Source of the DNA: Eledone cirrhosa
Taxonomy: Eukaryota
Assembly: GCA_964016885.1 (NCBI GenBank)
Contig: OZ024743.1
Coordinates: forward strand, 107,756,001-107,820,000
DNA length: 64,000 nucleotides
Reading direction: 5' to 3'
The notes under the pieces: generated by a model
Told to the model about the DNA's origin: nothing
Databases searched by the model: none
What the model saw: the letters and a program-made list of their open reading frames with translations, nothing else
Program-made: the position numbers and the translations under genes
Shown: positions 3,706 through 63,000 of the stretch, piece by piece
Position numbering within the stretch: position 1 is the stretch's first letter
Layout: every line of letters starts with the position of its first letter

Positions 3706-6700
3706 GGTGAGCTATGCGGCCCTCTTACCAGCACTTTCCCTTCCACCCACACGCGCCAGCCACCCACCCTTGATGCTGCTCGGTGCCTCAGTCCCCGGCC
3801 CCACGCCCCATCTCCCACCCCTCCAAATCGACACCTGCAGCACTTGCGGCACCACTAACAAACGGAAGAAGGGCCGGAACTGTTTGGAGTGCGGCTGCTT
3901 CCACCACCTCACCTGCATTGGCTTGACTCGTCGAGCTTCCAATGCCCTCGCAGCGTGGAGATGCAGGAGCTGCCTCTTCCCAACGTCTTCCCAGCCACGG
4001 CCGTCTGGCACACCACCAGATGGGACAGCGAGCTTTCCTGACGCCCGAGCCTCGCTGGTCAACATTGCTCGGCTCAGGCGGCTCCGGAAGATCCCACTCA
4101 GGAACACGAGAGCGGCACAGGTCCGGTAGCCGATGCCCTCGCTTCCTAGATTGAAAGCGCCCTGGACTCCAATCGAGGTAGTGACTGGGAGCGGCTGTTC
4201 TATTTCTCCCCACTCTCTCTTGGCCTCTCTAGCTCTGGCGCTGACCGGGGCGGCCGGTCAATAGCAGCCTTCGTCAAGGCCAATGTCTCGTCATTTGGGT
4301 GAGCGCCCATTCCAAGCGTGCCCAGGGACGCCACACACCCCACCCTTAGGTACCTCCTATCCTCCACCCCCAAGGGCAGCGCTAAGCGTTTGCGTGACCA
4401 GGTAAACGCAAAGCTTATCATGGGTGATGTCTCGATCGCAGTCAGAGTTGTTGCCTCAGAGGACACTGTCCTCCAACCCACCGAGGATGTCCTGGCTGCT
4501 CTGCGGCTCAAACACCTTCAGCCACACACTGATCTCAGACCCATACCCCCACCCGACCCCCACTTGCTCCTTGTGGCTACTGATGCAGGTATCATGTCCG
4601 CCATCAGGTCCTTCCCAAGCTAGCAACTGCGGGGGTGTTGATCGTCTCCGAACAGGCCACCTCAAGGAGTTGACATCCCCCTCTCCACTGAGGCCAGGCG
4701 GCGCCTTCTGAGTGCAATTGTGGAACTCACCAATAGGCTCATTCATGGTGCCCTCGACCCTTTCGTCCGAGACCTCTTTTTTTCGGCCAGCCTCACCGCT
4801 CTCAGGAAGAAAGAGGGTGGCATACGCCCCATTGCTGTGGGCAATGTCTTCCGGAGGCTTGCTGCCAAGGTGATCTGCAAGTCCGTCACAGACGAACTGG
4901 GTGAGCAATTTATTCCGGTGCAACTGGGTGTCGGCGTGTCCGGTGGCTGTGAGGGAGCCGCTCATGCAATCACGCAGTTCTTCAGCAACTGCCCATCGGT
5001 ACCGGTATCCAGTTACTCCAGGCACCTCATTGTCAAGTTTGACATGAGGAATGCCTTTAACTCTTTACGCCGAGATCATCTGCTCGAGGCCTGCCTCAGC
5101 CGAGCCCCCCCCCCCCTGCCTACCCGCTGGCCTACCTGTCATATGGAGCCCGAGCATGCTCCCAGCTGCTGATACGGTCATACCATCGGCTACTGGGGTC
5201 CAACTGGGACCCCTCCTGTTCGCCCTTGGTATTGACCACATCGCCCAGAGTATCATGGCACCTCTCAACGTTTGGTATCTGGATGATGCTACGTTGGGGG
5301 GGGGGGGGGCGTACGGAGGTCTGCCATGACCTTCAATCGGTGATTCGTGTCCTGGCGCGAATCGGCCTCCAGGTCAACTCGTCCAAGTCGGAGGTGGTGA
5401 ACGTCAGCCTCGATGCTGCGAGCTTTGCAGCCTCCATCTTGGAGGTGCGATCCATCTCCGCCAGGTTCAGGTGACCCCCAAAGAGGATGTCCTCATCCTC
5501 GGGTCACCGATCCACCCGCCGGCCATCCGCTCCACCACCAGGTCCAGGCTTCAACAGCTCCAGACTCTCACGAGCCGACTGGGCTTGATTGATGGCCACC
5601 CAGCTCTCTTTCTGCTGAGGAACTGCTTCGCCATGCCGAAGCTCCTCTATACACCCGCTGCGCTCCATGCTACACGCAGACATCTCTCCTCGCTGACCTC
5701 GATACTTGTATCCGAGCAGTTGCCGAGGGGATATGCAACGTCAAGTTTGACGACGTAGGGTGGCAACAGGCCACTTTACCGGTCAGGTATGGCGGCCTTG
5801 ACCTCCGGTCCCCGATCTCACTAGCTTTGCCGGCGTATCTTTCGTCGGTAACCTCGTGCCGCGTGATCGTCAGCAGGGTTCTTCAATACACAACAGAACC
5901 CTCTGTGTTCAGAGAACGTGAGGTCGCCTGTAAGACGTGGGACCGGCTGGGACTTAGCCCAGTAGACGTCCCTCCTCTTTCTCCCCCCTGTTGACGTCAA
6001 ATCCCCCCAATGCACTTGGGATGCCATCCAATGCAGCCTGGCCTCAGACAGGCTCACGCGCCAGCTCGAACAGCACCGCCTTGCTTGTTTTCGTGTGGCC
6101 TCCAAACCCCACAGTGGTGCCTGGCTCCATGCCCTGCCCTCCTTCTCCACTGGCACGCAGCTAGACAACCATAGCCTACGAATCGGCGTTTCCCTGAGGC
6201 TCGGCCTCCGGATCTGCCTGTCACACCAATGTCGCTGCGGTCCACCGTGGACTCTTTCGGCCTCCACCCGCTTTCCTGTCGCCACAGTGCCTGCCGCATT
6301 CCTGCTGCCCTCAACGAGGTCATTAAGCATGGCTTGCACGCTGCAGGCTTCCCTTCCCAGCTCGAGCCGGTGGGGATGGATCGAGGGAAGGGCAAAAGGC
6401 CAGATGGCATGACCATCTTCCCGTTCTGCGGTGGCAAAGACCTCGACTGGGATGTCACTTGCACCGACACTTTCTGCAACCTGGTGCAGTCTGCGACTGA
6501 CCCAGGTTCTACTGCACATCGGGCTGAGGGGGCCAAACTCCTCAAATACCGGTCGCTCTCCGACAGTTTTGCGGTCGTTCCCCTGGCAGTGGAGACTTCT
6601 CGTGTCCTCGGCCCCAATGCTACGTCCTTACTCACCACCATAGGCGCTGAACTGGCCAGCCGCAGGTGTGAGCCCCGCGAGTTGGAGTGGCTTTTCCAGC

Positions 6701-6879
6701 GAGTCTCCATTGCCGTCCACCGGCGAAACACCTTCTCCATTCTGTCCGCCGGGGCTGTGGGTGGGCCCCATCCCATCGCGTACCAATACGTTAGTTAAAT
6801 ACCATTCTTTCATCTGATATATCTCTAATTAGTCGTACTTATAGCAACTTTTGTCTTTATATTTGACGTCATAATTACA

Positions 6880-9394: not shown

Positions 9395-10918
9395 TAATAA
9401 AAGGAATTCCAACTTTGTCTGATTTACTCGTTTTATTTACAATCCTTTAAAATTTATAATGGTATTAGAATGAAATAGTATGGTAGAATATTAAATGTTA
9501 AGTGTTAATTGAACAAGTACTTTCATGCTTTCACAATCTTCAGGCTCATAATGTGTGGTGACAGTCAAGTTTGCAATTTTCAACTGTAATGAGATGGGTA
9601 AATTTTGTGCCTTATATACAGTGAAAAGTGGCTCCAGAATGCTAAATCTTGCAAACTGTATTTCGACCAATCGGTGTGTCGTTTCACTGAATTACTAAAG
9701 CTGATTGGTTGAGCATGTCTAACGGCTACTAATTGGCCCTATCCAAAGCATCAATTGTTTTGCTATTTTTAGAAATGATGAAAATAGCATTTTCTAGTAA
9801 TCATCACCATCAACATCACTTTTATTATTATTATTATTGTTGTTGTTGTCGTTGTTAGTGGTCTTAGTCATAGTCATAGTAGGAGACCCAATTATTATTG
9901 TTCATTTAGCTTGGGTTTGAATTTATCAATAACATTCTTTTCTTTGATTTTTTTCTTGATTTCACTTGAGCTGTGTAATTTGTAGAATATTATAAATATT
10001 CCCTGACCACATGTTGCTAGATCGTTACTTAGGGCTATCTGACGGACATTTGGGTCTCTGATTTGCTGTCGGTGTACCCGTGCACGATCCGATAGTGCAT
10101 TTCCAGGTTGACCGACATATAGATCTTCACAATTCGGGCATTTAATGCAGTAAATTAGATTTCTGCTTTTGCAGTTCATATTTGCATTTGGGAATATTTT
10201 TCCAGTTTTTGTTTTTATATATTGACCGGCGTGTATGGATTGACATGTGCCACATCGACTATCATTGCATTTAGATACAGTGAATGATTGGTATTTGTTG
10301 TTAAGGTCAAACAATGCCTTTGTTAGTAATTGCTTCACATTTTTCGGCTGTCTTTTGCTAAGAGTCAAAGATCGATCTGTGATTAAGCCTTTTAATTCAT
10401 TACTTTGAGCAATGATCGGTAGGTTTTCTGTGGCAGTGTTGAAGATATTCTGGTGACATGGGTTATGTGTCATTATAAATGGTATGACCAGTTCTTGGTT
10501 TCTTCTTCCTTGGGTTGTCCTAAGTTGTTGTATAGGTATGTTTATAGCCCGCTGTACACCATTTTCTATAAGTAGAGATGGGTATTTTTGTTTGAGCAAA
10601 AATTCTCTTAGTTCTGTTAGGCGTTTGTACCTGTTAGGCGTTTGTACCTGTTAGGTGTTTTTACCTGGTATTCGTATCTTCTACAATGGTACAAATTCTT
10701 CTGGCTAGGCAGTATGGGATGTTGCCTTTTGTATGAGGTGGATGGCACGACTTAAAATTCAGATATCGTTGGGTGTCTGTGTGTTTATAATATATATCCG
10801 TGGTAATGGTGGTGTCGTTTTTGATTATCATTATATCTAGGAATGGTAATTTGGTACTACACCCATCTCTCCAATTCACAAAAGAGATGAGTAGGACCAA
10901 ATTACCATTCCTAGATAT
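9395..10918 (-). mobile_element. Penelope-like element (Neptune-type Cys linker), 5'-truncated, degenerate
   Basis: KLPFLDI..DIYYKHTDTQRYLNFKSCHP (RT thumb); KCNDSRCGTC; NLIYCIKCPNCEDLYVGQ (GIY-YIG); a 17-bp triplication at ~10614-10660 breaks the frame; last ~62 bp are inverted. Confidence 0.9.
9510..9548 (-). ncRNA. Minimal type-I hammerhead ribozyme motif in PLE 3' pseudo-LTR
   Basis: UGAGC-CUGAAGA-U-UGU(GAAA)GCA-U-GAAA-GUAC-UU-GUUCA: intact core, 5-bp stem I, palindromic stem III AGUACU. Confidence 0.8.
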
Positions 10919-12770
10919 AGGCTTCGGATCCGTGTTCAGGAGCTGGTTTGCTGCAATGCATAACAGCAACATCTGCTCAAGGGTTAAGGTGAACGGCTAC
11001 CTCTCGGAGCCGTTCCATATCACGCGATGCATTCGACAGGGATGCCCTCTCTCTTCCCTTCTGTACGTATTGACTCTCGAGCCATTACTGCGGAAATTGG
11101 AGCTATTGCAGGGCATCCCTCTGGAACCGGGACTGCGGAAAGCGGCGTCGGTCTACGCCGACGACGTTACAGTAATGGTGTCGAACGCCTTGCAAATCGA
11201 GGAGGTCGGGACCTTACTGAATGAATACGAAAGGTTCACAGGAGCGAAGCTGAACCGGGGCAAGTCCATCGCTTTGCAACTCGGATCGTGGAGAGGCAAA
11301 TCGATGCCTTCCAATGGCGTCGTCTGACGCTGGACGGAAGGACCAGTAAATCTGCTCGGGGTCTGGTTTGGTCCGGACCTCCAGGTGGAGAAGAACTGGA
11401 ACGAGGTGTCGGCCAAGGTGTTTGCACTCACCCAGAAGTGGGCGGAGTGTAAACTATCATTGAAAGGTCGAGCGGAGGTGGCGAACACTTTTATAGCGTC
11501 CGCCATCTACTACCGCTTGACCGTCGTGCCTTGTCCAGCCAAAACGCTCGGCAAAATGGAGCGCGCGCTCTTCCAATTCCTTTGAAAAAGGCGGGGTCCT
11601 TTGGTGAGAAGATCCATCTGCTGCCAACGACCTGGCAACGGGGGGCTGAGGATGCCGTGGCCGACGATGTGCAAACACGCGCTCAGGCTGCGGCATCTCT
11701 ACTTATTCCTCACCGGACAACCGGCGGGGGCCCCGTTCGTGAGGCGAGCCTTCCCACGACTCGTCTCGCTGACCGAGCTGCAGTCCTGGGTCAAGCAAAG
11801 ACCGAGAAAAATGGGCGACTTGCACATCGAATGTGCTCAGGCACTCACATCCCTCTGGCAGGCGGACCCGGCGATCAGTGGAGAGTCCACTTCATCATTC
11901 TATAGAGAGGTGATCCGCAGCAAGTGCGACGACGTGCTCGGTGAAACTCTGGGCGTAGAGGAAGACGAACTGGCCAGTCTGTTCGGTAGGACCTTCCGCC
12001 CGGGACCGATGGACAACTTCCCAAAGTCCCTGGCCTGGCAGTGTTACCGAGGAGCTCTACCAGTTCGAGACAAGCTCTACAGACATGGGCGCCCGGGCAG
12101 GGACCCTTCGAAAAAGATCTGTCCGAGGTGCGTACGAGACGAAGAAGCCGTTCCGCATGCATTCATACACTGTGGGGCTATGTGGAACGACTATTGTCGC
12201 GGGTGGGACCAATCCAGTGGACCACCGAGTCCATTGTCATGATCAAACCGCCACCCTCCTTCAAAAACGAAGGAGAGGCGGTTTTCCTTTGTGTGATAGC
12301 TATGGCGAAAGAGGTTGTATGGTGGACAAGTTTGAAAGGGCTGAGGTCAGACACCTTTCTCTCCGGCCAACAACTGATTATTTTTTTCAAATACCACTTT
12401 GGAAGAAGAATCAGGATGGAGAGAGAGGTGCTGTACCCCAGCAAGTTTTATGAAAGGTGGGTGAAAGTGGTGAGAATGGCCCGAGTGAATGGGTTTCTCT
12501 CTATATAGGTTGAGGAAAAAGGGGAGGCGAGGAAAGGAAAACAAACTCTTCGTACTCCTGGAGATGAGGGTTGCACATTTTTTTTTCGGGGGTATGTGTT
12601 ACCCATATATAATGTTTCCCCCTATTGGGGAAAATCGATTAATTTTTAAATTGCATTTGTGATAATATATTGCACATTTTTATTGTATGTAAACTTCCTC
12701 CTTTGTATTTGTCCCCTTCTTTTGTGCCCCTGTGGCTAATAAAGAAACATATCTATCTATCTATCTATAG
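10919..12770 (+). mobile_element. Tx1/L1-clade LINE, 5'-truncated, with stops
   Basis: RQGCPLSSLLY, YADDV, LSLKGRAEVAN, GGLRMP, C-terminal CPRC..E..HAFIHC; 3' AATAAAGAAA followed by (TCTA)n; homologous to 60150-64000. Confidence 0.92.

Positions 12771-17161: not shown

Positions 17162-17168
<7 letters not shown>
16668..17168 (+). mobile_element. Internally deleted Tc1/mariner relic (DD41D/rosa-type spacing)
   Basis: ORF 16735-16926 FMQDG...RPTRSPDLMPCEFFFVG resembles FQQDGA...WPPRSPDLTPCDFFLWG with 41 residues between the 2nd and 3rd acidic positions; imperfect TIR-like ends TATAG(A/G)GTG within TA tracts. Confidence 0.7.
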
Positions 17169-17246
<78 letters not shown>

Positions 17247-17248
<2 letters not shown>

Positions 17249-17372
17249 AGAAATAGCTGTCGAAACGGCTTGAGCTCTGCCGGCGGGGTTAAATATCTTC
17301 CTATAGAGTGGGTAATAGAAAAATGTTTAATCCCGACGGCAGAGCTCAGGCCGTTTCGACAGGTATTTCTGG
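17247..17372. repeat. Family A inverted pair, heads facing outward
   Basis: CCAGAAATAGCTGTCGAAACGGC... mirrored by ...GCCGTTTCGACAGGTATTTCTGG; flanks (TG)n and (CA)n are mirrored too. Confidence 0.8.
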
Positions 17373-17386
17373 ACACACACACACAA

Positions 17387-17478
<92 letters not shown>

Positions 17479-17481
<3 letters not shown>

Positions 17482-17590: not shown

Positions 17591-17616
17591 ATATATATAT
17601 ATATATATATATATAC

Positions 17617-17830
17617 AAATAAAATGATCGAGAATCGAAACTTCGGCCCACGAAATAACGAAAAACAATCTCCGAAATGTGCGGCAAATTGCTCAATGGT
17701 TCGGATGAACCAGAGCTATAACTAACGTTTAATACCAAACACACTGAGACGATGTTTAAGCAATCATTCGCACAGCAAAAAAATACGATCAAGTAATTCG
17801 GGTCAAACAAATAAAAATATACATGATTGA

Positions 17831-20333: not shown

Positions 20334-20394
<61 letters not shown>

Positions 20395-20494
20395 TACGAT
20401 ATTAAACAAATGGAAACTATATTTATAAAACCATATTTATTTCATTATACATATTTCGGGGATACCATATTAATTCCGATATATATATAAATAA

Positions 20495-20535
<41 letters not shown>

Positions 20536-20556
20536 TATATATATATATATATATAT

Positions 20557-20604
<48 letters not shown>

Positions 20605-20608
<4 letters not shown>

Positions 20609-22912
20609 TTCGCGGATGTAGAGGTTATCTCCCTTGTCTAATGCCATGTGCGTTTTTCACTGGTGGTTAGCCCCTTATCCGCTAGGAAAAAAGCTCGTTG
20701 AGAAAGTAAACTCCGTTCCTCTTGCTCTAGTAGGCTTTTATATTTATATGTGAGCTGATAGAGTACAGTCTAAGGATTTACAGAAACCCAAGAAGCTAGA
20801 TTTAACACCTTTCTAGAGGGTCCGGGTATGATTTTACATTCATTTAAATTATTGATGTATTGTTTTATTGATATTTTTTATCTGTTTGTCCCGAATCTTC
20901 TATTATCGATTTTTTATCGTATGGTTGATTGTAGACTTGTTCTATATGTGACGGTATTTTAACGATAGTTATAGCTCTGATTCATCTGAATTATTGAGCC
21001 CTCTGCCGCTCATTTCGAATTTTGTTTATCGTGAACTCGTGCGCCGATTTTTCGATACTCGATCTTTCTAATATTTTTAGCTCTGGACATAGCTATCCAC
21101 CAGTTAATTTTATTGCTATTTTTTTGTCGATTCTATTGAGTGATGAATAGCTTTTGTTTTATTTTAATATGTCTATTGAGCACTCTTATTCGATATGTGT
21201 ATTTCCACATTCCCTCGAATAGTTTTCGCGGATGTAGAGGTTATCTCCCTTGTCTAATGCCATGTGCGTTTTTCACTGGTGGTTAGCCCCTTATCCGCTA
21301 GGAAAAAAGCTCGTTGAGAAAGTAAACTCCGTTCCTCTTGCTCTAGTAGGCTTTTATATTTATATGTGAGCTGATAGAGTACAGTCTAAGGATTTACAGA
21401 AACCCAAGAAGCTAGATTTAACACCTTTCTAGAGGGTCCGGGTATGATTTTACATTCATTTAAATTATTGATGTATTGTTTTATTGATATTCTTTATCTG
21501 TTTGTCCCGAATCTTCTATTATCGATTTTTTATCGTATGGTTGATTGTAGACTTGTTCTATATGTGACGGTATTTTAACGATAGTTATAGCTCTGATTCA
21601 TCTGAATTATTGAGCCCTCTGCCGCTCATTTCGAATTTTGTTTATCGTGAACTCGTGCGCCGATTTTTCGATACTCGATCTTTCTAATATTTTTAGCTCT
21701 GGACATAGCTATCCACCAGTTAATTTTATTGCTCATTTTTTGTCGATTCTATTGAGTGATGAATAGCTTTTGTTTTATTTTAACATGTCTATTGAGCACT
21801 CTTATTCGATATGTGTATTTCGACATTCCCTCGAATAGTTTTCGCGGATGTAGAGGTTATCTCCCTTGTCTAATGGATTGTGCGTTTTTCACTGGTGGTT
21901 AGCCCCTTATCCGCTAGGAAAAAAGCTCGTTGAGAAAGTAAACTCCGTTCCTCTTGCTCTAGTAGGCTTTTATATTTATATGTGAGCTGATAGAGTACAG
22001 TCTAAGGATTTACAGAAACCCAAGAAGCTAGATTTAACACCTTTCTAGTGGGTCCGGGTATGATTTTACATTCATTTAAATTATTGATGTATTGTTTTAT
22101 TGATATTTTTTATCTGTTTGTCCCGAATCTTCTATTATCGATTTTTTATCGTATGGTTGATTGTAGACTTGTTCTATATGTGACGGTATTTTAACGATAG
22201 TTATAGCTCTGATTCATCTGAATTATTGAGCCCTCTGCCGCTCATTTCGAATTTTGTTTATCGTGAACTCGTGCGCCGATTTTTCGATACTCGATCTTTC
22301 TAATATTTTTAGCTCTGGACATAGCTATCCACCAGTTAATTTTATTGCTCATTTTTTGTCGATTCTATTGAGTGATGAATAGCTTTCGTTTTATTTTAAC
22401 ATGTCTATTGAGCACTCTTATTCGATATGTGTATTTCCACATTCCCTCGAATAGTTTTCGCGGATGTAGAGGTTATCTCCCTTGTCTAATGCCATGTGCG
22501 TTTTTCACTGGTGGTTAGCCCCTTATCCGCTAGGAAAAAAGCTCGTTGAGAAAGTAAACTCCGTTCCTCTTGCTCTAGTAGGCTTTTATATTTATATGTG
22601 AGCTGATAGAGTACAGTCTAAGGATTTACAGAAACCCAAGAAGCTAGATTTAACACCTTTCTAGAGGGTCCGGGTATGATTTTACATTCATTTAAATTAT
22701 TGATGTATTGTTTTATTGATATTTTTTATCTGTTTGTCCCGAATCTTCTATTATCGATTTTTTATCGTATGGTTGATTGTAGACTTGTTCTATATGCGAC
22801 GGTATTTTAACGATAGTTATAGCTCTGATTCATCTGAATTATTGAGCCCTCTGCCGCTCATTTCGAATTTTGTTTATCGTGAACTCGTGCGCCGATTTTT
22901 CGATACTCGATC

Positions 22913-22919
<7 letters not shown>
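20605..22919 (+). repeat. Tandem array of a 616-bp unit, 3.76 copies, ~99% identical, inside a (TA)n tract
   Basis: Unit start AGTTTTCGCGGATG at 20605, 21221, 21837 and 22453; the last unit is truncated at 22919. Confidence 0.97.
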
Positions 22920-22980
<61 letters not shown>

Positions 22981-22984
<4 letters not shown>

Positions 22985-23350
22985 AAAAGAATGACTTCAC
23001 TTGTAGTTTTAAACAATTTAATTTAATTTTATGATATTATAATATTATAATTTTACAATTTGGTTTCGTAGATCTAGTAAGATCTTTGTTAACTTCGTTG
23101 CGGAAATGTTTAAAGATTCCTGGTTAACTTTCCTAGAGAACGTTCTCTCCTTCATCGGTGGCGCCCACTTTGACAATGACAACCGACGTATGTGAAAAAT
23201 TTCTCCAGGAAAGTTAACCAGGAATCTTTAAAACGTATCCCCATCGAAATAAACGAAGAAATTATTAGATCTTCAAAACCAAATTGTAAAATTATAATAT
23301 AATATTAAATTAAATTGTTTAGAACTACAAGTGAAGTCATTATTTTGCTC
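22981..23350. repeat. Family C imperfect fold-back (arms ~150-170 bp)
   Basis: ATGACTTCACTTGTAGTT...GATTCCTGGTTAACTTTCCT mirrored by AGGAAAGTTAACCAGGAATC...AACTACAAGTGAAGTCAT. Confidence 0.85.
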
Positions 23351-23454
23351 TTTTTACATATACCCAACGGTACCAAGGATTCCACACATTTTCTAATGTA
23401 TGAGTCAGAGCGCGTATGTATGAGTGTATATATATATATATATATATGTATATC

Positions 23455-25879
23455 CTCAAACACTACCCCGACCTTCGCCCCTCCCCCATTCCCTCCACCC
23501 CCACCCTCCTTCGCCACGCCGAGCTGGTCGTCACCATCAATTGTTTCTCCTTCTCGGGTGAGTTTTACCAACAGGTCACGGGGGTAGCCACGGGTACAAG
23601 AATGGGCCCGAACTATGCCAACCTTTTTGTTGGCCATGTTGAGGCCCAAATCTTTGCCCAGTACACCGGCCCCACGCCCGAACTGTACGGTCGTTACATT
23701 GACGACTGTATCGGAGCAACGACCCTCACCCGAGAACAGCTCGACTCTTTTCTCTCCTTCTTCTGCTCCTTCCACCCCTCCCTCCACTTCACCACCTCTA
23801 TCTCCACCACCCACGTCCACTTCTTAGACATCTCCGTCGCCTTCGACCCGTCCCACCCCTCCCTCGTCACCTCCGCCTTCTTCAAATCCACCGACTCCCA
23901 CTCTTACCTCGACTTCACCTATTCCCACCCCACCCACACTAAACACTCCATTCCCTACTCCCAACTTCTCAGGATCCGCCGCCTCTGTAGCCGAGATGGT
24001 GACTTCGAGTCCCAGGCCCTTTCCCTAGTCAGCCATTTCATCCGCAGAGGTTACCCCCCCTCTCTCGTCCACACCGCTCTCACCCGCGCCCGTGCTGTCC
24101 CCCGCTCCACCACCCTCACCCCACGCCACCGCACACCCACCCACCGTCTCCCCTTCCCCATCACCTACCACCCCTCCACCTTACCACTCCACGGCACCAT
24201 CCGCCGCCTCTTCCGACGCCTCCAGTCCGACCCCTTCACCTCCCACATCTTCCCAACCCCACCACTCCCCTCCTTCAAACGCGCACGCAATATCCGCACC
24301 CTCTTCGTCCACAGCTCCCAACCCCCCAACCCACGCTTTGTTTCCCCCCCGGTTCCTTTCCCTGTTCTAGGCCCCGCTGCAACACCTGTCCCCACATCAC
24401 CAACACCACCACCTTCCAGGGTCCCAACGGCCACTCTCTCTCGGTCCGGCATGCCTTCCGCTGCACCTCCTCCAACCCAGTTTACGGACTTCGCTGTCGG
24501 ACAGACGGGACGTCGCCTGGCGGACCGATTCACTGAGCACCTCCGGGATATTCGTCTCGGTGGTAGTTCCCCCATCGCCCGCCACTTTGGTGGCCCTGGA
24601 CATTCCGCACGCCATCTCACAGTCTGTGGCCTACTCCAATGCCACGGAACACCCGCCAATCGCCTTAGAGTCGAACAAAGAACTATCTTCATCTTACAGA
24701 CCCACACTCCCCCCGGCCTGAACTCCCCACCCTTATTCCTTTAGCATTCGACTTTCCCCTCCCCCCACACTTACCCCCCACTAACACCACTAACACCCAT
24801 TCATCAAACTACACACACACCAGTACACCACACTCCCTCCATAGAACTACACACACCCTTCTCTCCCCGCTCCACCCACACCCTCGCTCCACACTCACTC
24901 ATCCCACTAACACCTCTACTAATACACACACACACACCCTCCTCACTCCAACTTTCACACCTACCCATCCTCGCCCCTTTACCATTCCACTGACTGCTGC
25001 TATGCCCTCTGACCACCTCCCAGCACAAACAGACATACAGTACTCCCACTGCTTGACCACTTTCTGTTGCGCGCACACCCCACATCTCTCCTCTGCCGAC
25101 CATCTCTTCATGGAATACTCTTATGTGGAACTTGACCACCACAGAATCCACTAAACATCATAGGATTTTACCAACTTTTCAACCATCCTCTTACGGAATC
25201 ATCTATATAACTCACCGACACACACACCCCCAAAATTGTTTTCCTGCACACGCCACCTACACCCACAACACGCTTATACCCCACACACACGTGCTTTCCA
25301 CCACATATTTACACCCTAAGCCTCCTGATTCCTCTCCCCCACCCCTCTATCCACACACGCACATACACTCCGACCTGCAACCCCCCCCCCCACACCTCTT
25401 CCTGAACATGCAACCCCGTTCTTCTCCCAACCCTTACTTTCACATACACACACACACACGTACACCTACACACACACACCACCTTCAGCCCTCCCCGGTC
25501 GGACACCCCGCCTCCCTCTCCCCACTCCACCCACCACCACCCCTACACACCCCACACCCTTCCACCACCTGTTTTACCCCCCTTTTAATTTCAGTTTATT
25601 TTGATCCTACTTTTATATTTAAATTATTTCATTCCTTGTATTTTGATCATGCTTTATTTTTATTTTTATTTTTAATTTCATTCTCACCGTTTCCTTTCGC
25701 TATATGTCTCTCCACCACTCCCCTACACACCCTTTGAACTCTGTTCCCACACACTTCTCACCTGAGGAAGGGCTTATGCCCGAAAAGTCGTTCCCCACCA
25801 CCACCCCACTCTCCAGAGCGTGAAATTAATAAACATCCGTTGTACTGCCTCTCTGTTTTGTTCCTGTTCAAATTTTTCC

Positions 25880-25881
<2 letters not shown>
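23455..25881 (+). mobile_element. Neptune-type Penelope-like element, 5'-truncated copy 1
   Basis: QQVTGVATGTRMGPNYANLF, RYIDD, HFLDI, SHSYL..SHP..TKHSIPYSQ; GIY-YIG region has a deletion at ~24493; long C-rich 3' region; ends at (TA)n. Confidence 0.95.
25759..25791 (+). ncRNA. Minimal hammerhead motif (decayed copy)
   Basis: CUGAGGA-A-GGGC(UUAU)GCCC-GAAA-AGUC; stem-III palindrome ACGU mutated to AAGU. Confidence 0.65.
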
Positions 25882-25970
<89 letters not shown>

Positions 25971-26023
25971 GTGTATATATCAATGATATTAATAAATGGA
26001 AACTATAATTATAAAACCATATT

Positions 26024-26085
26024 TATTTTATTATATATATTTCAAGGGTACAAAAAACTTTGGTACACTCTCATCAGATAAAATA
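26024..26085 (-). ncRNA. Type-I hammerhead motif, family D (3' pseudo-LTR)
   Basis: UAUUUUAU-CUGAUGA-GAGUGUAC...GUACCCUU-GAAA-UAUAUA-UA-AUAAAAUA; 8-bp stem I, long stem II, palindromic AU stem III. Confidence 0.8.
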
Positions 26086-26325
26086 CAAATTTTGTTTTAT
26101 AAATAATGACATACACGATAAACCAGAACTTATCGGTTCAGTTTCCATTTGGATAGTGAAAGAAAAAGAGAAACATTCCAAACCAATTAGGATGGATATG
26201 CAAATGAAGTAGAAACGTAGACTGTAAACATCGTTATATTTCGACGCTAGGTAAATTTAAATAATTATTAGGATACTTTATAAAAGAGGAAGATGAAGAA
26301 GCAGGAAGAAAGATAGGCTATTATT

Positions 26326-29840: not shown

Positions 29841-29903
29841 TATTTTATTATATATATTTCAAGGGTGCCAAAAAAACTTTGGTACGCCTCATCAGATAAC
29901 ATA
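29841..29903 (-). ncRNA. Type-I hammerhead motif, family D (5' pseudo-LTR)
   Basis: UAUGUUAU-CUGAUGA-GGCGUACCAAA...UUUGGCACCCUU-GAAA-UAUAUAUA-AUAAAAUA. Confidence 0.75.
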
Positions 29904-37133: not shown

Positions 37134-37520
37134 CAATGATATTAAATAAATTGAAACTATATTTATAAAACCATATTTATTCTATTATATATATTTCAAG
37201 ATGTACCAAAATTTGGGTACGCTATCATCAGATAAAATACGAAGTATTGGATACTATCCAAGGAAAACTTGAACCGTTTAGGTATATTCTCCTTGGTTAT
37301 GTAAACATTTCTAAAACACACTTCGTATTTTATCTGATGATAGCGTACCAAAATGTTGGTACCCTTGAAATATATATAATAGAATAAATATGGTTTTATA
37401 AATATAGTTTCCATTTATTTAATATCATTTTATATTATAATCCAGAATCTGTCGTGTGCTCTGAATCAGTTATAAACATTTATATTTGTTGAATTTCCAA
37501 TAAATTGAATATCCCTTCTG

Positions 37521-37556: not shown

Positions 37557-37746
37557 TTAATCCCGGAAGAAATCGGAGGTAACCACAGTAAGTAAGGTAC
37601 TCAATACAAAGAAGAGTATAAATATTTTATATAGAAAAGGCTTCTACGGGACTAGAACCGTTTCATTCGGGAGAAATCATTAGGAACCTCTGATGATTTC
37701 TCCCGAATGAAACAATTCTAGTCCTGTAGAAGCCTTTTTCTATATT
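37555..37746. mobile_element. Family B fold-back with a hammerhead motif in each arm
   Basis: Plus arm CUGAUGA-U-UUC(UCCC)GAA-U-GAAA-CA..CUAG..UG-UA-GAAGCC (37690-37734); minus arm the same with CUAAUGA; tail shares GTATTGAGTAC with family A. Confidence 0.75.
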
Positions 37747-37754
37747 AAATATAT

Positions 37755-37804
<50 letters not shown>

Positions 37805-38781: not shown

Positions 38782-39645
38782 TGCTTTAAAACACACACTA
38801 TATATATATATATATATATTTACACACATATATGCATACATACATGCATACATAGACATACAGGCAGACAGACGCATATACACATCTATATCAAACCGCA
38901 CAGTTGCTTCGCTGGTTCCCTATTATTTTGGAGCAGAGCCAGAAACCTTCGGATTAATATCATCGTAGGTCAATAAGGCCGAATATCAATTTCACGTCAA
39001 TATATTATGTTAGGCCCAATTTGAAGACACATCTCTATCAGACAACCACATATCTAATCATTTCTACTTAGTTTCTGTCTGTCTGTCCCTTTCACCCTCT
39101 ATCTCTCTCCCCTATTCTATCTATCACTTCTAATCTCTCTCATTCCTTCTCTCTCCCTCCCCCTTCTCTCTCTCTCTCTCTCTCTCTATTTCTCTCTCCC
39201 CTCTCTCTCTCTCCCTCTCTCTCTTCATCCCATCTTCCTCTCTTTCTCTCTCTCTTTATTGCGATATTTTTACATATTTTGCTAAGATATTTTTCTCCCA
39301 TTAGTTATTATCGTCTTTTTCCCATATATATATATATATATATTTATATATGTATTTATACGTGTATATATAAATTTTATTTTTAAATGACCTCCATTAC
39401 TGTATATATATTTTTAATATATTTATATATTTTTATTCGTTTAATTTTGATGGAAACTCTCCATCATTGGTCATTCATACCACGCAGATTCAATGTGTGA
39501 TGCCGAGCAAAACACAATTTTCTTTCCGCTAAATTTTCTGATTTTTATATATTTATACATTTATTTATTTATATTCATATTCGTATTTTTATTAAAGGAA
39601 GTGATAGAGAGGACGTGAGTAAAAGATATGGAGGCAGAATTTACA

Positions 39646-42755: not shown

Positions 42756-45700
42756 GCCCACCACACTCCACCTCTCCCCCGACCCACACCCCTACCCAAT
42801 CTCCACCCTCCACCTCACCCCTCACCACACCCTCCCTTCCCTCCCCAAACACCCAAACCCCACCCCTTGTTGTCACCATACCCCCTGACCTCCCCCTCTC
42901 CTCACCTGAGCGCTCACTCCTTAGTAGAGGCCTTCGCTTCATACCCCACACTCCGCTCAGCGACGAGTTCCGCACCCGAACGGAAGTCGAGCGGTTCGTG
43001 CGACGCACTAAGCTACAGGCACATTTCAGCCGAACGCCACCGGCTCCGGACGCCCCAGACCCGTTTCTCGCCCTGGGCCGACGACCATCTTCTTGGACGC
43101 CGGCCCCAGGGCAATTTAGCACCCTGGACGCCTTCGTCGATGCCAGCCGTAGCGCAGTAAATCGTTTCGACTTCTGCCACCGTTCCAAACGGCACAACAT
43201 CTCACGGGGCGAACTCCTCGCTCTCCGCTCCCTCCGTAGCCGAGATGACATCGTCATCAAACCGGCGGACAAGGGAGGCGCCGTGGTGGTATGGCGCGCG
43301 GATCTCTACACGGCCGAAGCCCTCAGGCAGCTCTGTAACCCCCTCTTTTACCGCCCTCTACCCTCCGATCCCACCCCCCTCTACCAACAACAAGTCTCCT
43401 CCACCATCAAATACCTTATCGCCTCCTCCCTCCTCCCCCCACCGCTTCCCACCTCATCGTCCGCACCCCCCGCACCCCCACCATCTACTTCCTCCCCAAA
43501 CTCCACAAACCCGACAACCCCGGCCGCCCCATCGTCTCCGCTTGCAACTGCCCCACCGAACTCATCTCCGCCTTTCTCGACTCCCTCCTCGCCGCCCTTG
43601 TCACCACCCTCCCCTCCCACATCTCCGACACCAACCACGCCCTGCGCCTTTTCGACTCCTTCACCTACCTTCACGGCTCTCAGCCATTCCTCTTCACCCC
43701 CTAGACATCAAGTCCCTCTATACCGTCATCCCCCACAGCGACGGCCTTCGCGCCCTCAAACACTACCTCGACCTTCGCCCCTCCCCCATTCCCTCCACCC
43801 CCACCCTCCTTCGCCTCTTGGAGCTGGTCCTCACCCTAAATTGTTTCTCCTTCACGGATGAGTTTTACCAACAGGTCACGGGGATAGCCATGGGCACAAG
43901 AATGGGCCCGAACTATGCCAAACTTTTTGTTGGCCATGTTGAGGCCCAAATCTTTGCCCAGTACACCGGCCCCACGCCCGAACTGTACGCTCGTTACATT
44001 GACGACTGTATCGGAGCCACGACCCTCACCCGAGTACAGCTCGACTCCTTTCTCTCCTTCTTCTGCTCCTTCCACCCCTCCCTCCACTTCACCACCTCTA
44101 TCTCCACCACCCACGTCCACTTCTTAGACATCTCCGTCGCCTTCGACCCCTCCCACCACTCTCTCGTCATCTCTGCCTTCTTCAAACCCACCGACTCCCA
44201 CTCTTACCTCGACTTCACCTCTTCCCACCCCACCCACACTAAACTCTCCATTCCCTACTCCCAACTTCTCAGGATCCGCCGCCTCTGTAGCCGTGATGCT
44301 GACTTCGAGTCCCAGGCCCTTTCCCTAGTCAGCCACTTCATCCGCAGAGGTTACCCCCCCCCCCCCCTCTCGTCTACACCGCTCTCACCCGCGCCCGTGC
44401 TATCCCCCGCTCCACCACCCTCACCCCACGCCACCGCACACCCACCCACCGTCTCCCCTTCCCCATCACCTACCACCCCTCCACCTTACCACTCCACCGC
44501 ACCATCCGCCGCCTCTTCCGACGCCTCCAGTCCGACCCCTTCACCTCCCACATCTTCCCAACTCCACCACTCCCCTCCTTCAAACGCGCACGCAATCTCC
44601 GCACCCTCCTCGTCCACAGCTCCCTACCCCCCAACCCACGCTCCGGTCCCCCCCCGGTTCCTTCCCCTGTTCTAGGCCCCGCTGCAACACCTGTCCTCAC
44701 ATCACCCACACCACCACCTTCCAGGGTCCCAACGGCCACTCTCTCTCGGTCCGGCATGCCTTCCGCTGCACCTCCTCCAACCTAGTCTACGGACTTCGTT
44801 GCACGGAGTGCAGCGCGACTTATGTCGGACAGACGGGACGTCGCCTGGCGGACCGAGTCACGGAACACCTCCGGGATATTCGTCTCGGGGGCAGTTCCCC
44901 CATCGCCCGCCACTTTGGTGGCCCTGGACACTCCGCACGCCATCTCACAGTCTGTTGCCTACTCCAGTTCCACGGAACACCCGCCCATCGCCTTACGGTC
45001 GAACAACGCACTATCTTCATCTTACAGACCCACACTCCCCGCGGCCTGAACTCCCCACCCTTATTTCTTTAGCGTTCGACCGCCCCCCTCCCACTACACT
45101 TATCCCCCACTAACACCACTAACACACCCCTCCTTTTCACCGCCCACCCCACACTAACAATACTAACACCTCCACCCCTCATCTAACCACCTTCCCCAAC
45201 TAACATACTAACATCCCTTCCCTCCCCTCGTCTCCTCCTCCCCCCTCCTTATCACACGCACACACGCACCCACTTACACCACCCACCCCACACGCAACTA
45301 ACATCACTAACACACCCCAACCCCACGCACACGTACCCACACACCCACGTACACCACCAACTCTACACACCCTACCACCACTGACCCCCACTCACACCTG
45401 CATTCCACCCCTCCCCACCTCCCGTATACTAACACCCACTAACACCTCTTCACCAAACTACACACACACCAGTACACCACACTCCCTCCATAGAACCACA
45501 CACACCCTTCTCTCCCCGCTCCACACTCACTCATCCCACTAACACCCCTACTAATACACACACACACACACACACACCCTCCTCACTCCAACTCTCACAC
45601 CTACCCATCCTCGCCTCCCTACCATTCCGCCGACTGCTGCTATGCCCTTCCGACCACCTCTCAGCACCAACTGACCACAGCACTCCCACTGCTGACCACT

Positions 45701-46536
45701 TCCTGTTGCGCGCGCACCCCACATCTCTCCTCTTCCGACCACCGCTTCTTGGATTACCCACACACGAAATTGACTTCTAACCAAATCTCCAAACATCCGT
45801 GGAACTTACCAACTTTTCAACCATCCTCTTACACCATCACCTATATAACTCACCCACACACACAGCCCCCAAGCATTTTTTTTTATCCACACGCCACCCA
45901 CACCCACAACACGCTTAAACCACACACACGTGCTTCCCACCACATATTTACACCCTCAGCCTCCTGATTCCTCTCCCCCCACCCCCCTATCCACACACGC
46001 ACAGACACTCCGACCCACAAAAACACCTCCCCACACACACCTTCCTGAACATGCAACCCCGTTCTTCCCCCAACCCTCACTTTCACATACACACACACGC
46101 ACACCTAACCACACACACCACCTTCAGCCCTCCCCGCTCGGACACCCCGTCTCCCTCTCCCCACTCCACCCGCCACCACCCCTACTCACCCCACACCCTT
46201 CCACCACCTGTTTACCCCCCTTTTAATTTCAGTTTATTTTGATCATGCCTTTATTTTTAAATTTTCTCCTTCCTTGTATTTTGATCATGCTTTATTTTTA
46301 TTTATTATATTTTTTGTCTTTATTTGTTAATTTTTCATTCGCATCGTTTCCTTTCGCTATATGTCTCTCCACCACTCCCCTACACACCTTTTGAACTCTG
46401 TTCCCACACACTTCTCACCTGAAGAAGGGCTTATGCCCGAAACGTCGTCCCCCACCTACCCGCCACTCTCCTGCGCGTGAATTTAATAAACATTTATTGT
46501 ACTGCCTCTCTGTTCTGTCCCTGTTCAACTTTTCAT
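42753..46536 (+). mobile_element. Neptune-type Penelope-like element, longer copy 2, frameshifted in C-runs
   Basis: LLSRGLRFIP, IVIKPADKGGAVVVW, YFLPKLHKP..PGRPIVS, DIKSLYT.IPH, GIAMGTRMGP, RYIDD, PC.RPRCNTC, VYGLRCTECSATYVGQT; closely similar to 23455-25881. Confidence 0.95.
46416..46448 (+). ncRNA. Minimal type-I hammerhead ribozyme motif in Neptune pseudo-LTR
   Basis: CUGAAGA-A-GGGC(UUAU)GCCC-GAAACGUC; palindromic ACGU stem III, GUC cleavage triplet, but only a 2-bp stem I. Confidence 0.8.
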
Positions 46537-46614
<78 letters not shown>

Positions 46615-50264: not shown

Positions 50265-50327
50265 CCCTTGAAATATATATAATAAAATAAATATGGTTTT
50301 ATAAATATAGTTTCCATTTAATAATAT

Positions 50328-50330
<3 letters not shown>
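50265..50330 (+). mobile_element. Family D tail fragment starting inside hammerhead stem II
   Basis: CCCTTGAAATATATATAATAAAATAAATATGGTTTTATAAATATAGTTTCCATT followed by (TA)n; a related minus fragment lies at ~20398-20480. Confidence 0.7.
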
Positions 50331-50383
<53 letters not shown>

Positions 50384-60099: not shown

Positions 60100-63000
60100 T
60101 ATATATATATATAGATAGATAGATACATAGATACATAGATAGATAGATATATTTCTTTATTAGCCACAAGTGCGCACAAGAAAAGGGGACAATACAAAGA
60201 CATACCGGGGATTTTACATACAGTCGTGTAAAAAATATAAAACCAAACAATTACAACAATCGAAATCACCAATAGGAGGGAGGCGCCACAAATTGGTTGT
60301 TTAATATCCCGTCGATAGAACAACCCTCAACTCTAGGAGCGTGTTGTGCAAGTGCTCCTTTCTTCCTTTTGCTCTCTTCTTCAACCTACAGGCTTATAAA
60401 CAGAGAAGGCCCAAACACTCGGGCCATTTTCGCTTCATTCACCCACCTTTCAGTAAATTTATTGGGGTGCACTGCCTCTCTCTCCACTCTGATTCTCCTT
60501 CTGAAGTGATACTTAAAGAAGGGAATCAATTGTTGTCCGGAGAGAAAGGCATATAACTTCTTTCACCATAACCATCGTACGGAGGAAAACGGCCTCTCTT
60601 TCATTTCTGAAAGAGGCTGGCGGTTTGATCCTTACTGTTTGCGCATCATCAGCCACGGCATTCTCAGCCCTCCGTTGGAAGGGTGTTGACAGCAGACGGA
60701 TCTCCTCACCAGCGGAGCCTGTTTCTTCCACATAAACTGGAAGAGCATGCGTTCCATCTTGGCGAGGTGTTCACGGAGACAAGGCACGACAGTCAAGCGG
60801 TAGTAGATAACGGACGCTATGAAATTGTTCGCCACCTCCACTCGAGCTTTCAAGGACAGTTTGCAGCCTGCCCACTTCTGGGTGAGTGCAAACACGTTGG
60901 CCGTGACCTCGTTCCAGTTTTTCTCCACCTGGAAGTCTGGACCGAACCAGACCCCGAGCAATTTCACCCGTCCGCCCGTCCAGCGTCCAACGACGCTGTC
61001 GAACGTCATCGGTTTGCCTCTCCACGTACCGAGTTGCAAACCGACAGACTTGTCCTGGTTTAGTTTTGCTCCGTCAGCGTTTCGTATTCTTTCAGTAAGT
61101 TTCCGATCACCCCGATTTCCGAGGTGCTCGACACCATTACCGTCACGTCATCGGCATAAGCCGACGCCGCTTTGCGCAGTCCCGGTTCTAGAGGGATGCC
61201 CTGTAGCAGCTCCAATTTCAGCAGTAGTAGCTCTAGAGTCAATACATAGAGAATGGAGGAGAGAGGGCACCCTTGTCGAATGGAACGCGTGATTGAGAAC
61301 GGCTCCGATAAGTAGCCGTTTACCTTGACCCTCGAGCAGATGCTGGTGTGCATCGCCTCGATCCAGCCTCTGAAAACGGGACCGAAACCGGCCGCCTTGA
61401 GAACCGCTTCCAAGTATCGATGGTCGACCCTATCGAAATGCCTTAGACTGATCCAAATTGATCAGAGCCCCACCGAAGCCGGGTTTACTACTCACCCTCT
61501 CTATGATGTATCGCATGAGGTGGAGGTTGTCGTGTATGAACCTGGTCGGGATTGCACACGTTTGCGCTTTCACTACCAGGTTCTCGACGACAAGCGCCAA
61601 CCTCGTCGCTAGCACCTTGGCCAAAATCTTTAACTCTGTGTTGAGCAGTGTTATGAGCCTGAAGTTGTTAATTTCGTCGCCCTTGTTCTCGTCTTTCCCG
61701 AACAGCGTTACTACGCCCTTGCCTGCAGAACTGGGAATTCTCCCGTTCTGCTGCCAATTGCAGTAGACGGCTTCTAGGACGCCAGAAAACAAGTCCGGCA
61801 TGCCTATGTAAAACTCATAGGGTAGACCATCTAGACCGGGTGACTTGCGTTTCCCGCAGCGGCCCAGAGCGTCCCTTATCTCAGTGTCCGTGATCGGTCT
61901 TTCGCAGAACTCGGCGTCCGTGTTCGAGAGACGCGACAGGCCGTCGAGGTATGAACTAAAGTCCATTGCCCCGTTCGGCTCACCGTTGTTCTGCTCAAAC
62001 AGCCCCGCAAAGTGCTGCTGAAAGGCCGCGCACATTTGCTTGAGGTCAAGTAGCACGCGTCCGTTTTGGTCTTTCAAAGACCGAATCGTGGACTTGTTGC
62101 CACTTTTCGCCTCCGCCACTTGGGCCCTGCTGACAGCTTTCGCTCCTTCGTTTTCTAGAGCACTTGTTTTGGTTCTGACCACGCAGCCTTCGTGTTTCGC
62201 ATCGAAGAACTGGTCCAGTGCCGTTCTCGACGCTAACACTCTAGCCGCGTTGCCACTTCTAAGTTCCTCCTCTACCTTGGCTACTAGTTCTCTTTCTATT
62301 TTGTTTTTCTCTAAGGCTAACTCTCTGCTAAAACCTATCGATTCTATTCTAATTGCTTTCTTGAGAGAGTACCACCAGTTATTGTTGACGATCTCTCCCG
62401 TTAACTGTTGCTTGACTAGTCTACTTATCCGTTCACTGTAAGCTTTACCTGCCGGCAACGACACGTTCAGCTTCCAGTGTCCGGGACCTTGTCTATGTAT
62501 TCTATCACGGTTGACTAAGCAGACGACTAATTTGTGATCTGAATAGGCAACCATGTGCATTGATGGACAGCTTAACATCTCCTTGTCCCTTTCTCTAATG
62601 AAGAACCAATCTAAATACGATCTAGATGTCCCGTTGCGGTTTACCCACGTCCACTGTGGTGCAGTCAGAAAATCCAGTCGATACCTATCGGCCATTTGGA
62701 ATTGGCCGATTAAAGTTTTGAGGCCGTTTCACCCACCTCTAATGGGACATGCTCCCACATAGTCCCATCTTGCATCTAGGATACCATTCCAGTGCCCCAC
62801 TAAAAGTAAGGAGCGAGACGTTCCCAGAAAAGACTCTAGACGCTTAAAGAAGTCTGGCCGTGATTGCGATTGCCCGGTCGGGGCATAAACGTCCACCAGT
62901 CTGAAGGCTCCACCTCCATTACTTTTCACGTCTAGGACTACCAGTCCAAGTGTACTTGCTGTACTTCGACGTCCAGGTTCTTCCGAAACATGACAGCCAT

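Follow-up and report, generated by a model that had tools for sequence, protein, structure and literature searches.

A young tandem insertion of a 616-bp non-coding unit in Eledone cirrhosa that may depend on Penelope-like elements

The 64,000-nucleotide stretch of Eledone cirrhosa DNA analysed here (the window) contains a non-coding array of 3.77 copies of a 616-bp unit, situated at 20603–22922 on the plus strand when the bases common to the unit and its flanking TA tracts are counted. The array is a young insertion, and its unit belongs to a large and variable dispersed family. It is a parasite of a known type and gives no sign of a host function. On balance, the data presented below slightly favour a non-autonomous retroelement that takes its enzymes from a Penelope-like element (PLE) targeting (TA)n tracts. 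The features on which this reading is based are collected in Table 1.

Table 1. Features of the 616-bp array and of its relative, in window coordinates
Feature	Position	Strand	Remarks
Whole insertion, 3.77 head-to-tail copies	20603..22922	+	Copy starts 20603, 21219, 21835, 22451
Left TA-rich target region	20337..20605		3 bases common to unit
Right (TA)n tract	22919..22981		4 bases common to unit; presumed priming side
Helix A (long imperfect stem), copy 1	20612..20682	+	Inner 8 pairs 20620–20627/20668–20675
Helix B (rod), copy 1	20706..20781	+	Pair probabilities mostly 0.8–1.0, copies 1–3
Hammerhead-like motif, type I order	20755..20822	+	Repeats at +616, +1232, +1848
3′ domain, ~125 bp before fixed end	22794..22922	+	X1 depth plateau 21562–21687, loose ends
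10-pair hairpin in 3′ domain	22822..22847	+	Retained in diverged relative
Diverged 5′-truncated relative	17615..17820	−	75% identity, 205 columns, unit positions 269–468

Results

Structure of the array and its target

A first-pass annotation of this DNA had described near-identical units of about 616 bp, with about eight differences in total and no credible ORF, and this description holds. At a lag of 616 bp, 1682 of 1699 positions match, whereas none of 29 other lags gave more than 558 matches. Eleven columns vary among the copies, which amount to eight events once adjacent columns are grouped. All eight are private to a single copy, a distribution that is forced for the four events beyond column 472, where only three copies exist. 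Pairwise differences between copies range from 0.2 to 1.3%; copy 3 differs from the other copies by 1.1–1.3%, and these differ among themselves by 0.2–0.8%. The G+C content of the unit is 36%. Its longest stop-to-stop frame spans 62 aa inside the unit and 71 aa in the last copy.

Rfam searches at E values of up to 10 identified no ribozyme or structured RNA family in the unit; 12 sub-threshold matches were returned, none of them to a ribozyme. No tRNA was found in the unit by either Rfam or ARAGORN, so the tRNA-like head of a tRNA-derived SINE is absent, and no LTR structure was seen around the array within the window.

The array starts and ends at different phases, the right end being fixed and the left end internal to the unit. 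Both junctions overlap with TA, as had been noted, by three bases on the left and four on the right. They had also been placed in one (TA)n tract. TA sequence is indeed present on both sides, but the left tract is not clean and contains a 68-bp PLE 3′-end piece (20398–20465). A target-site duplication is unreadable inside (TA)n.

A dispersed family with a fixed 3′ end

The diverged relative listed in Table 1, approximately 3 kb from the array, likewise sits between (TA)n tracts, and both of the unit copies in the window are thus flanked. The relative ends no more than about five bases from the 3′ phase of the array.

Part of the unit is present in 16 public sequencing runs, of which three (from one sample) contain more than half of its words and 13 contain less than half; none of the 16 is listed as an RNA run. 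The contigs of four of 21 runs were compared with the unit; the depths given here are sums over contigs rather than copy numbers. In run X1, 619 contigs align to the unit, 231 of them at 99% identity or more and 69 at under 90%, and the summed depth is above 9,000 in all 30 unit bins. Together with the relative, these contigs bear out the earlier suggestion of a dispersed mobile family as opposed to a local duplication. The summed depth in X1 is 180,000–332,000 over 21562–21687, the last stretch before the fixed end, and drops threefold, from 184,000 to 64,000, at 21688 (unit position 470). X1 may derive from a proximity-ligation library, in which depth would follow restriction sites, and four such sites lie at 21509–21749.

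A fixed 3′ phase, a check that the first-pass annotation had named beforehand, is supported in three ways: by the array end, by the relative and by the X1 depth step. The phase at which the array starts is crossed by one X1 contig (21182–21263; depth 6,952), which identifies the left end as a truncation. The segment of the unit between the 3′ end and the array start is abundant elsewhere, with a summed depth of 17,000–71,000 in X1, and the tandem form is thus a trait of the family. Fixed 3′ end, 5′ truncation and partial tandems were seen in two genomic copies and one depth profile, and a fixed right end with a truncated left end is the pattern of target-primed reverse transcription.

Three points of the unit circle are crossed by contigs: 21688 (one X4 contig), the joint 21757→21142 (X1 and X7) and 21219 (X1). 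The joint is an arbitrary cut of the reference unit, and its crossing shows continuity across that cut alone. Among the X1 loose ends listed, those before 21569 and 21574 represent sister subfamilies that have only the last ~120 bases in common with the unit, and one of these subfamilies is similar to the diverged relative in the window. The 3′ domain, which is the part of the unit with the highest abundance in X1, is a candidate region for reverse transcriptase binding and priming. At 21433 (unit position 215), the majority allele of X1, with 94% of the depth, occurs in copy 3 only; copies 1, 2 and 4 have the minor allele.

Runs X4 and X7 are not taken here to represent other species, as their depth is only 2–28 (apart from one unrelated spike in X7) and their alleles are largely those of X1. 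Four of the eight listed loose ends of these two runs lie at doubled GATC/GANTC junctions, a pattern typical of proximity-ligation libraries. The X4 and X7 matches may represent trace carry-over, and the loose ends at doubled junctions are not insertion junctions. Run X14, tentatively taken as RNA, gave five short, AT-rich matches together with a 144-base contig of depth 2.2, which says nothing about expression.

Sequence patterns of the unit gave no matches in a first metagenome scan or in scans of viral contigs and prokaryote genomes. Four metagenome loci with a 22-base unit pattern have nothing else in common with the unit, the region being phage-like, and were discarded as chance. A stretch of metagenome contigs that matched the pattern by chance (L001:1–5026) is a phage-like region with a terminase-like frame, as read by eye.

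Folding of the unit RNA

The plus-strand unit folds better than shuffled sequences both as a linear molecule (z −3.2, 0/20) and as a circle (z −3.6, 1/60). The minus strand folds less well (linear z −2.4, 1/20; circular z −1.9, 0/60). Local z-scores for 120-nt segments are mostly weak, the best being −2.9.

The long imperfect stem of the first-pass annotation (helix A) is recovered: when copies 1 and 2 are folded as circles its mean pair probability in the ensemble is 0.81–0.98, but in copy 3 the value is about 0.26. In copy 2 its inner helix is formed by 21236–21243 and 21284–21291, and six family changes (five variant rows and one loose end) fall there. Among the variants listed, all six retain or restore pairing: a U-A pair becomes C-G by changes on both sides, an A-C mismatch is mended in two ways, a G-C becomes G-U and a U-G becomes U-A. 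In addition, one X4 contig contains both arms, with eight of eight pairs intact. These changes lend modest support to conservation of the inner helix in the family, modest because all six are transitions, half of which retain a pair by chance. Farther out on helix A, the variants disrupt the register seen in the window, and re-pair only with a one-base slip, introduced by hand.

In helix B, upstream sequence is paired with three strands of the hammerhead-like motif, namely the CUGA-type core strand and the two strands of stem II. Two common family variants retain it, a G-U to A-U change at 21340 (81% of depth) and a C-G to U-G change at 21341 (54%), while one X7 contig breaks one pair. The proposition that family variants disrupt this core-blocking helix was dropped, as the register of the full-unit ensemble shows the pairs to be retained. 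In the 3′-domain hairpin, the diverged relative has one two-sided and one one-sided change, a comparison of two sequences that is not significant (246/500 shuffles), and an X7 variant at 21607 breaks one pair of this hairpin.

G-U pairs are meaningful on the plus strand only; their retention points to plus-strand RNA, the same strand as that implied by the fixed right end. As judged from the variants, the family appears to maintain two plus-strand helices, one of them via a compensatory pair.

The hammerhead-like motif

The hammerhead-like motif of the first-pass annotation was found where it had been placed, with both of its extra bases and its weak stem I. Stem II has a bulge and consists of 3 + 4 bp; stem III has 4–5 bp and stem I has 1 bp. 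One extra base lies between A6 and G8 and another before GAAA. The majority allele at 21433 extends stem III to 5 bp. The unit thus departs from the core CUGANGA ... GAAA ... UH, since position 7 is occupied by two bases and another base precedes GAAA, and of the three helices expected around the core, II and III can form while stem I is limited to its single pair.

A canonical hammerhead descriptor gave no matches in the unit. A relaxed descriptor matched 19 of 5000 shuffles, 2 of 5000 when only Watson–Crick pairs were allowed and 53 of 5000 when it was made looser still, but it was fitted after the motif had been seen, and the true chance rate is higher. With two bases allowed at position 7, the relaxed descriptor also matches at 39041 (−) and 41662 (+), where the stems are short and the likeness is probably due to chance.

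In the contigs compared, the family has three indel rows in all and none in the motif core, and the extra bases are therefore family-wide in the runs compared. Three variable sites occur in the 104 bases of the motif region and five in the 129 bases of the 3′ domain (40 of 59 variant rows). Low variation in the motif is explained by helix B, which covers the core, as well as by a ribozyme.

The claim of a working ribozyme is not borne out by the folding results. The hammerhead fold lies 9–18 kcal/mol above the free fold in all 16 stretches, the pair probability is 0 for stem I and at most 0.01 for stem II, and when the unit is folded entire, the core strand pairs with a strand upstream of it at 0.96–1.0. 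If the ribozyme were active, cleavage would be predicted after 20822. No step in depth is present at the predicted site (21439), although a step of this kind is finer than the contigs can resolve. A splice-dependent stem I, as in Penelope of Drosophila virilis, was also considered and set aside, no fitting exon end being seen by eye.

Hammerheads with an insertion after A6 do occur naturally, with low activity, as reported in PMC3088659. An extra base before GAAA is common among the Hydra-clade hammerheads given in PMC8557442, the listed examples of which have a stem I of 3–8 bp. The motif is probably a relic or variant of a PLE-type ribozyme; a likeness due to chance is the lesser possibility, though an appreciable one. 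It is doubtful that the motif would cleave itself at a useful rate.

PLEs and other repeats in the window

The window is microsatellite-rich and full of retroelement remnants. Two Neptune-like PLE copies, 93% alike and frameshifted, are situated at 23454–25880 and 43754–46540 (+), each with a minimal hammerhead approximately 120 bases ahead of a (TA)n tract. The Neptune-like clade is a candidate source of enzymes for the unit. A family of Hydra-like PLE 3′ ends is represented at 26040–26077, 29857–29895, 37194–37231 (−), 37334–37370 (+) and 1054–1302. These ends are 88–91% alike, have a normal hammerhead core and form inverted pairs at two loci; the motif at 26077 has an 8-bp stem I. Further fragments of Hydra-like 3′ ends were seen at 20398–20465 (−), the 68-bp piece inside the left TA tract, and at 50265–50331. 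The PLE clades were assigned from motifs, by eye, against PMC8557442. A protein search with the Hydra-like frame returned 13 unnamed matches, with identities of 32–40%.

The PLE hammerheads of the window possess a normal core. A TA run follows the core at a distance of 98–120 bases in four of the six PLE motifs examined and at 189 bases in one, with none within 600 bases in the remaining one. The fixed end of the unit lies 316 bases from its core, roughly three times as far as in the window PLEs. An autonomous partner was sought in three places without success. No sequence match was found between the unit and the PLE remnants of the window. Ten short motifs of the unit matched nothing telling in the consensus file of Naiad, Chlamys and Hydra elements published with PMC8557442, and reading by eye of the four cephalopod Naiad 3′ ends given there brought out no telling match either.

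In the region 20337–26100, at least five TA-targeting insertions lie next to one another: a Hydra-like fragment, the array, a palindrome, a Neptune-like copy and a Hydra-like 3′ end. The palindrome, imperfect (77%) and 390 bp long, is located directly to the right of the array (22970–23362). Each of its arms contains a hammerhead-like core in which position 4 is C and stem III is palindromic; the palindrome is probably not a MITE but a pair of PLE 3′ ends in inverted orientation. Other palindromes are present at 37616–37758 (85%) and 17164–17481 (78%), the former of which folds as a near-perfect hairpin and contains hammerhead core strands.

LINE remnants are located at 4642–6798 (+), 10791–12508 (+) and 60632–62728 (−); two are Tx1-like and 81% alike, and the third is presumed from its motifs to be CRE-like. 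The closest named relative of a LINE frame in the window is from Argonauta hians, with 59% identity. A tRNA-like sequence at 2544–2616 (−), with an Rfam score of 50.2 bits but no ARAGORN call, is probably a pseudogene or a SINE head.

Discussion

Proposed origin of the array

Under the slightly favoured reading, a tandem source locus would give rise to a plus-strand transcript longer than one unit. A PLE protein would bind the structured 3′ domain of this transcript and nick a (TA)n tract, and reverse transcription would start internally, near unit position 470, where four bases match the target. Copying would then proceed leftwards through 3.77 units, and the product would be joined at the 3-base match. 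Several properties of PLEs are consistent with such a route. The anole Poseidon element, as studied in vitro in PMC11167929, makes AT-rich nicks, starts internally and does not need ribozyme cleavage; its priming site has no homology to the target, so a match such as the four bases at the array end need not be present. Targeting of (TA)n is known for Hydra and many Naiad PLEs, in octopus as well, and non-autonomous Chlamys elements produce multicopy head-to-tail insertions, according to PMC8557442.

The template is more likely to have been a linear multimer than one circle. Any tandem template would, given 5′ truncation, yield start and end phases that differ, and such phases do not in themselves demonstrate rolling-circle copying. 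The private variants fit a single circle, whereas the lone family-majority allele of copy 3, at one site (unit position 215), hints at a mixed template or later gene conversion.

Alternative explanations

The first-pass annotation had interpreted the array as a long retrozyme-type element with an atypical ribozyme. The structured plus-strand RNA and the presence in the window of PLEs ending in (TA)n lend partial support to that interpretation, but a working ribozyme is not supported. A true non-LTR retrozyme would comprise an atypical yet functional hammerhead, monomers cut out and ligated into circles of 616 nt and a PLE enzyme that went around one circle 3.77 times, and is considered unlikely. 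A type I order of the core strands, accompanied by stems II and III and rare among shuffles (19/5000, or 2/5000 with Watson–Crick pairs), would be expected of it, but the descriptor that gave these counts was made after the motif was seen, and the canonical descriptor and Rfam (E up to 10) found nothing. The extra core bases are family-wide, that before GAAA being ordinary in the Hydra clade, and the majority allele at 21433 gives a 5-bp stem III; against this, stem I has 1 bp, compared with 3–8 bp in Hydra hammerheads and 8 bp in the Hydra-like motif of the window, and the motif region is no less variable than the 3′ domain in the 40 of 59 rows compared. A PLE hammerhead can require protein help (PMC11167929), and in the circles of plant retrozymes and viroids the ribozyme is kept blocked, but for the majority of animal retrozyme circles a free hammerhead is predicted (both PMC7229834), and the blocking strand of the unit, being upstream, would pair first during transcription. 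The circular plus-strand fold (z −3.6) and the four events in the first 472 columns, all of them single-copy, agree with copying from a circle; the family allele that copy 3 has and the other copies lack does not. In a further variant of this explanation, the hammerhead with its A6 insertion would be held shut by the upstream helix on a 616-nt circular RNA and opened by protein as a switched ribozyme, which is less probable again.

Growth in the DNA itself, in which a single monomer or PLE terminal repeat was inserted and the copies arose later by unequal exchange or satellite-type expansion, is given a similarly small chance. Such a route has been proposed for retrozyme arrays (10.64898/2026.07.22.740005), and the greater distance of copy 3 (1.1–1.3%, as opposed to 0.2–0.8% among the others) would accord with it. 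No variant, however, is common to two of the four copies in the first 472 columns (four events), and local growth requires more than one unit at the start. A partner other than a PLE, either a microsatellite-targeting LINE of Tx1- or CRE-like type or a Helitron-type DNA rolling-circle transposon, is very unlikely. LINE remnants do occur in the window, but no tail was added at the array end, and LINE-driven elements are not usually partial tandems. Helitrons begin with 5′-TC and end with CTRR-3′, near which lies a subterminal GC-rich hairpin. The right end of the array, CTAA followed by T, fits that rule, but the diverged relative lacks a CTRR end, the next unit lacks a TC start and the hairpin near the array end has just four pairs. 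The G-U pairs retained by the variants favour plus-strand RNA. That a single copy was turned into a tandem by the assembly is hardly credible: although the copies are 99% alike and no listed contig spans the locus, the eight private differences and the independent contigs that cross three points of the unit circle argue against it.

Significance

The head-to-tail insertions of PLEs and retrozymes may have either RNA circles or linear tandem transcripts as their template. The present family is young and abundant, its priming end is fixed and its hammerhead looks crippled, which suggests that such elements can spread without the ribozyme and go unnoticed in screens based on hammerheads. The conserved 3′ domain provides a handle for finding the partner enzyme. 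Should the ribozyme be switched, as in the variant described above, the unit would be a cephalopod retrozyme of very high copy number, in which the circle origin of PLE tandem insertions is put to a natural test.

Comparison with known systems

No published description of such an element in cephalopods was found in the literature covered, which leaves aside most subscription journals, Repbase and Dfam; the 2026 survey of retrozymes in 35 species names no cephalopod in its text (10.64898/2026.07.22.740005). The unit resembles the animal non-LTR retrozymes described in PMC7229834 and in that survey in being a non-coding, low-GC tandem unit found in short dispersed arrays, with a self-paired fold, type I hammerhead strand order and PLEs in the same genome. 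It had been called long for a retrozyme, but consensus lengths reported in the survey range from 51 to 972 bp, and 616 bp is not unusual among them. Unlike those elements, it has no canonical or minimal type I hammerhead, given its 1-bp stem I, its A6 insertion and a core that is paired upstream. Cleavage and circular RNA, features of the known retrozymes, are putative for the present unit. As it lacks the canonical hammerhead, the unit is not classed here as a retrozyme, although it works like one or like a non-autonomous PLE.

Among non-autonomous PLEs, the Chlamys-type elements represented by MRC1 are similar in forming multicopy head-to-tail insertions with 5′ truncation in microsatellite targets, in having a 3′ end common to related families and in lacking a canonical hammerhead (PMC8557442). 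The unit differs from them in its animal host, in its (TA)n target and in a 3′ end for which sharing was seen only with sister non-coding subfamilies. The one extra base between A6 and G8 recalls the A6a core variant of PMC3088659, the example of which is a proven weak ribozyme, while the motif of the unit is without stem I and is at most a putative ribozyme. Compared with the 3′ ends of Hydra, Neptune and Naiad PLEs, both those of PMC8557442 and the copies in the window, the unit lacks an RT or endonuclease frame, and its core lies 316 bases from the end rather than about 100–120. It does share with them (TA)n targeting and hammerhead strands upstream of a fixed end and, with the Hydra clade in particular, the extra base before GAAA.
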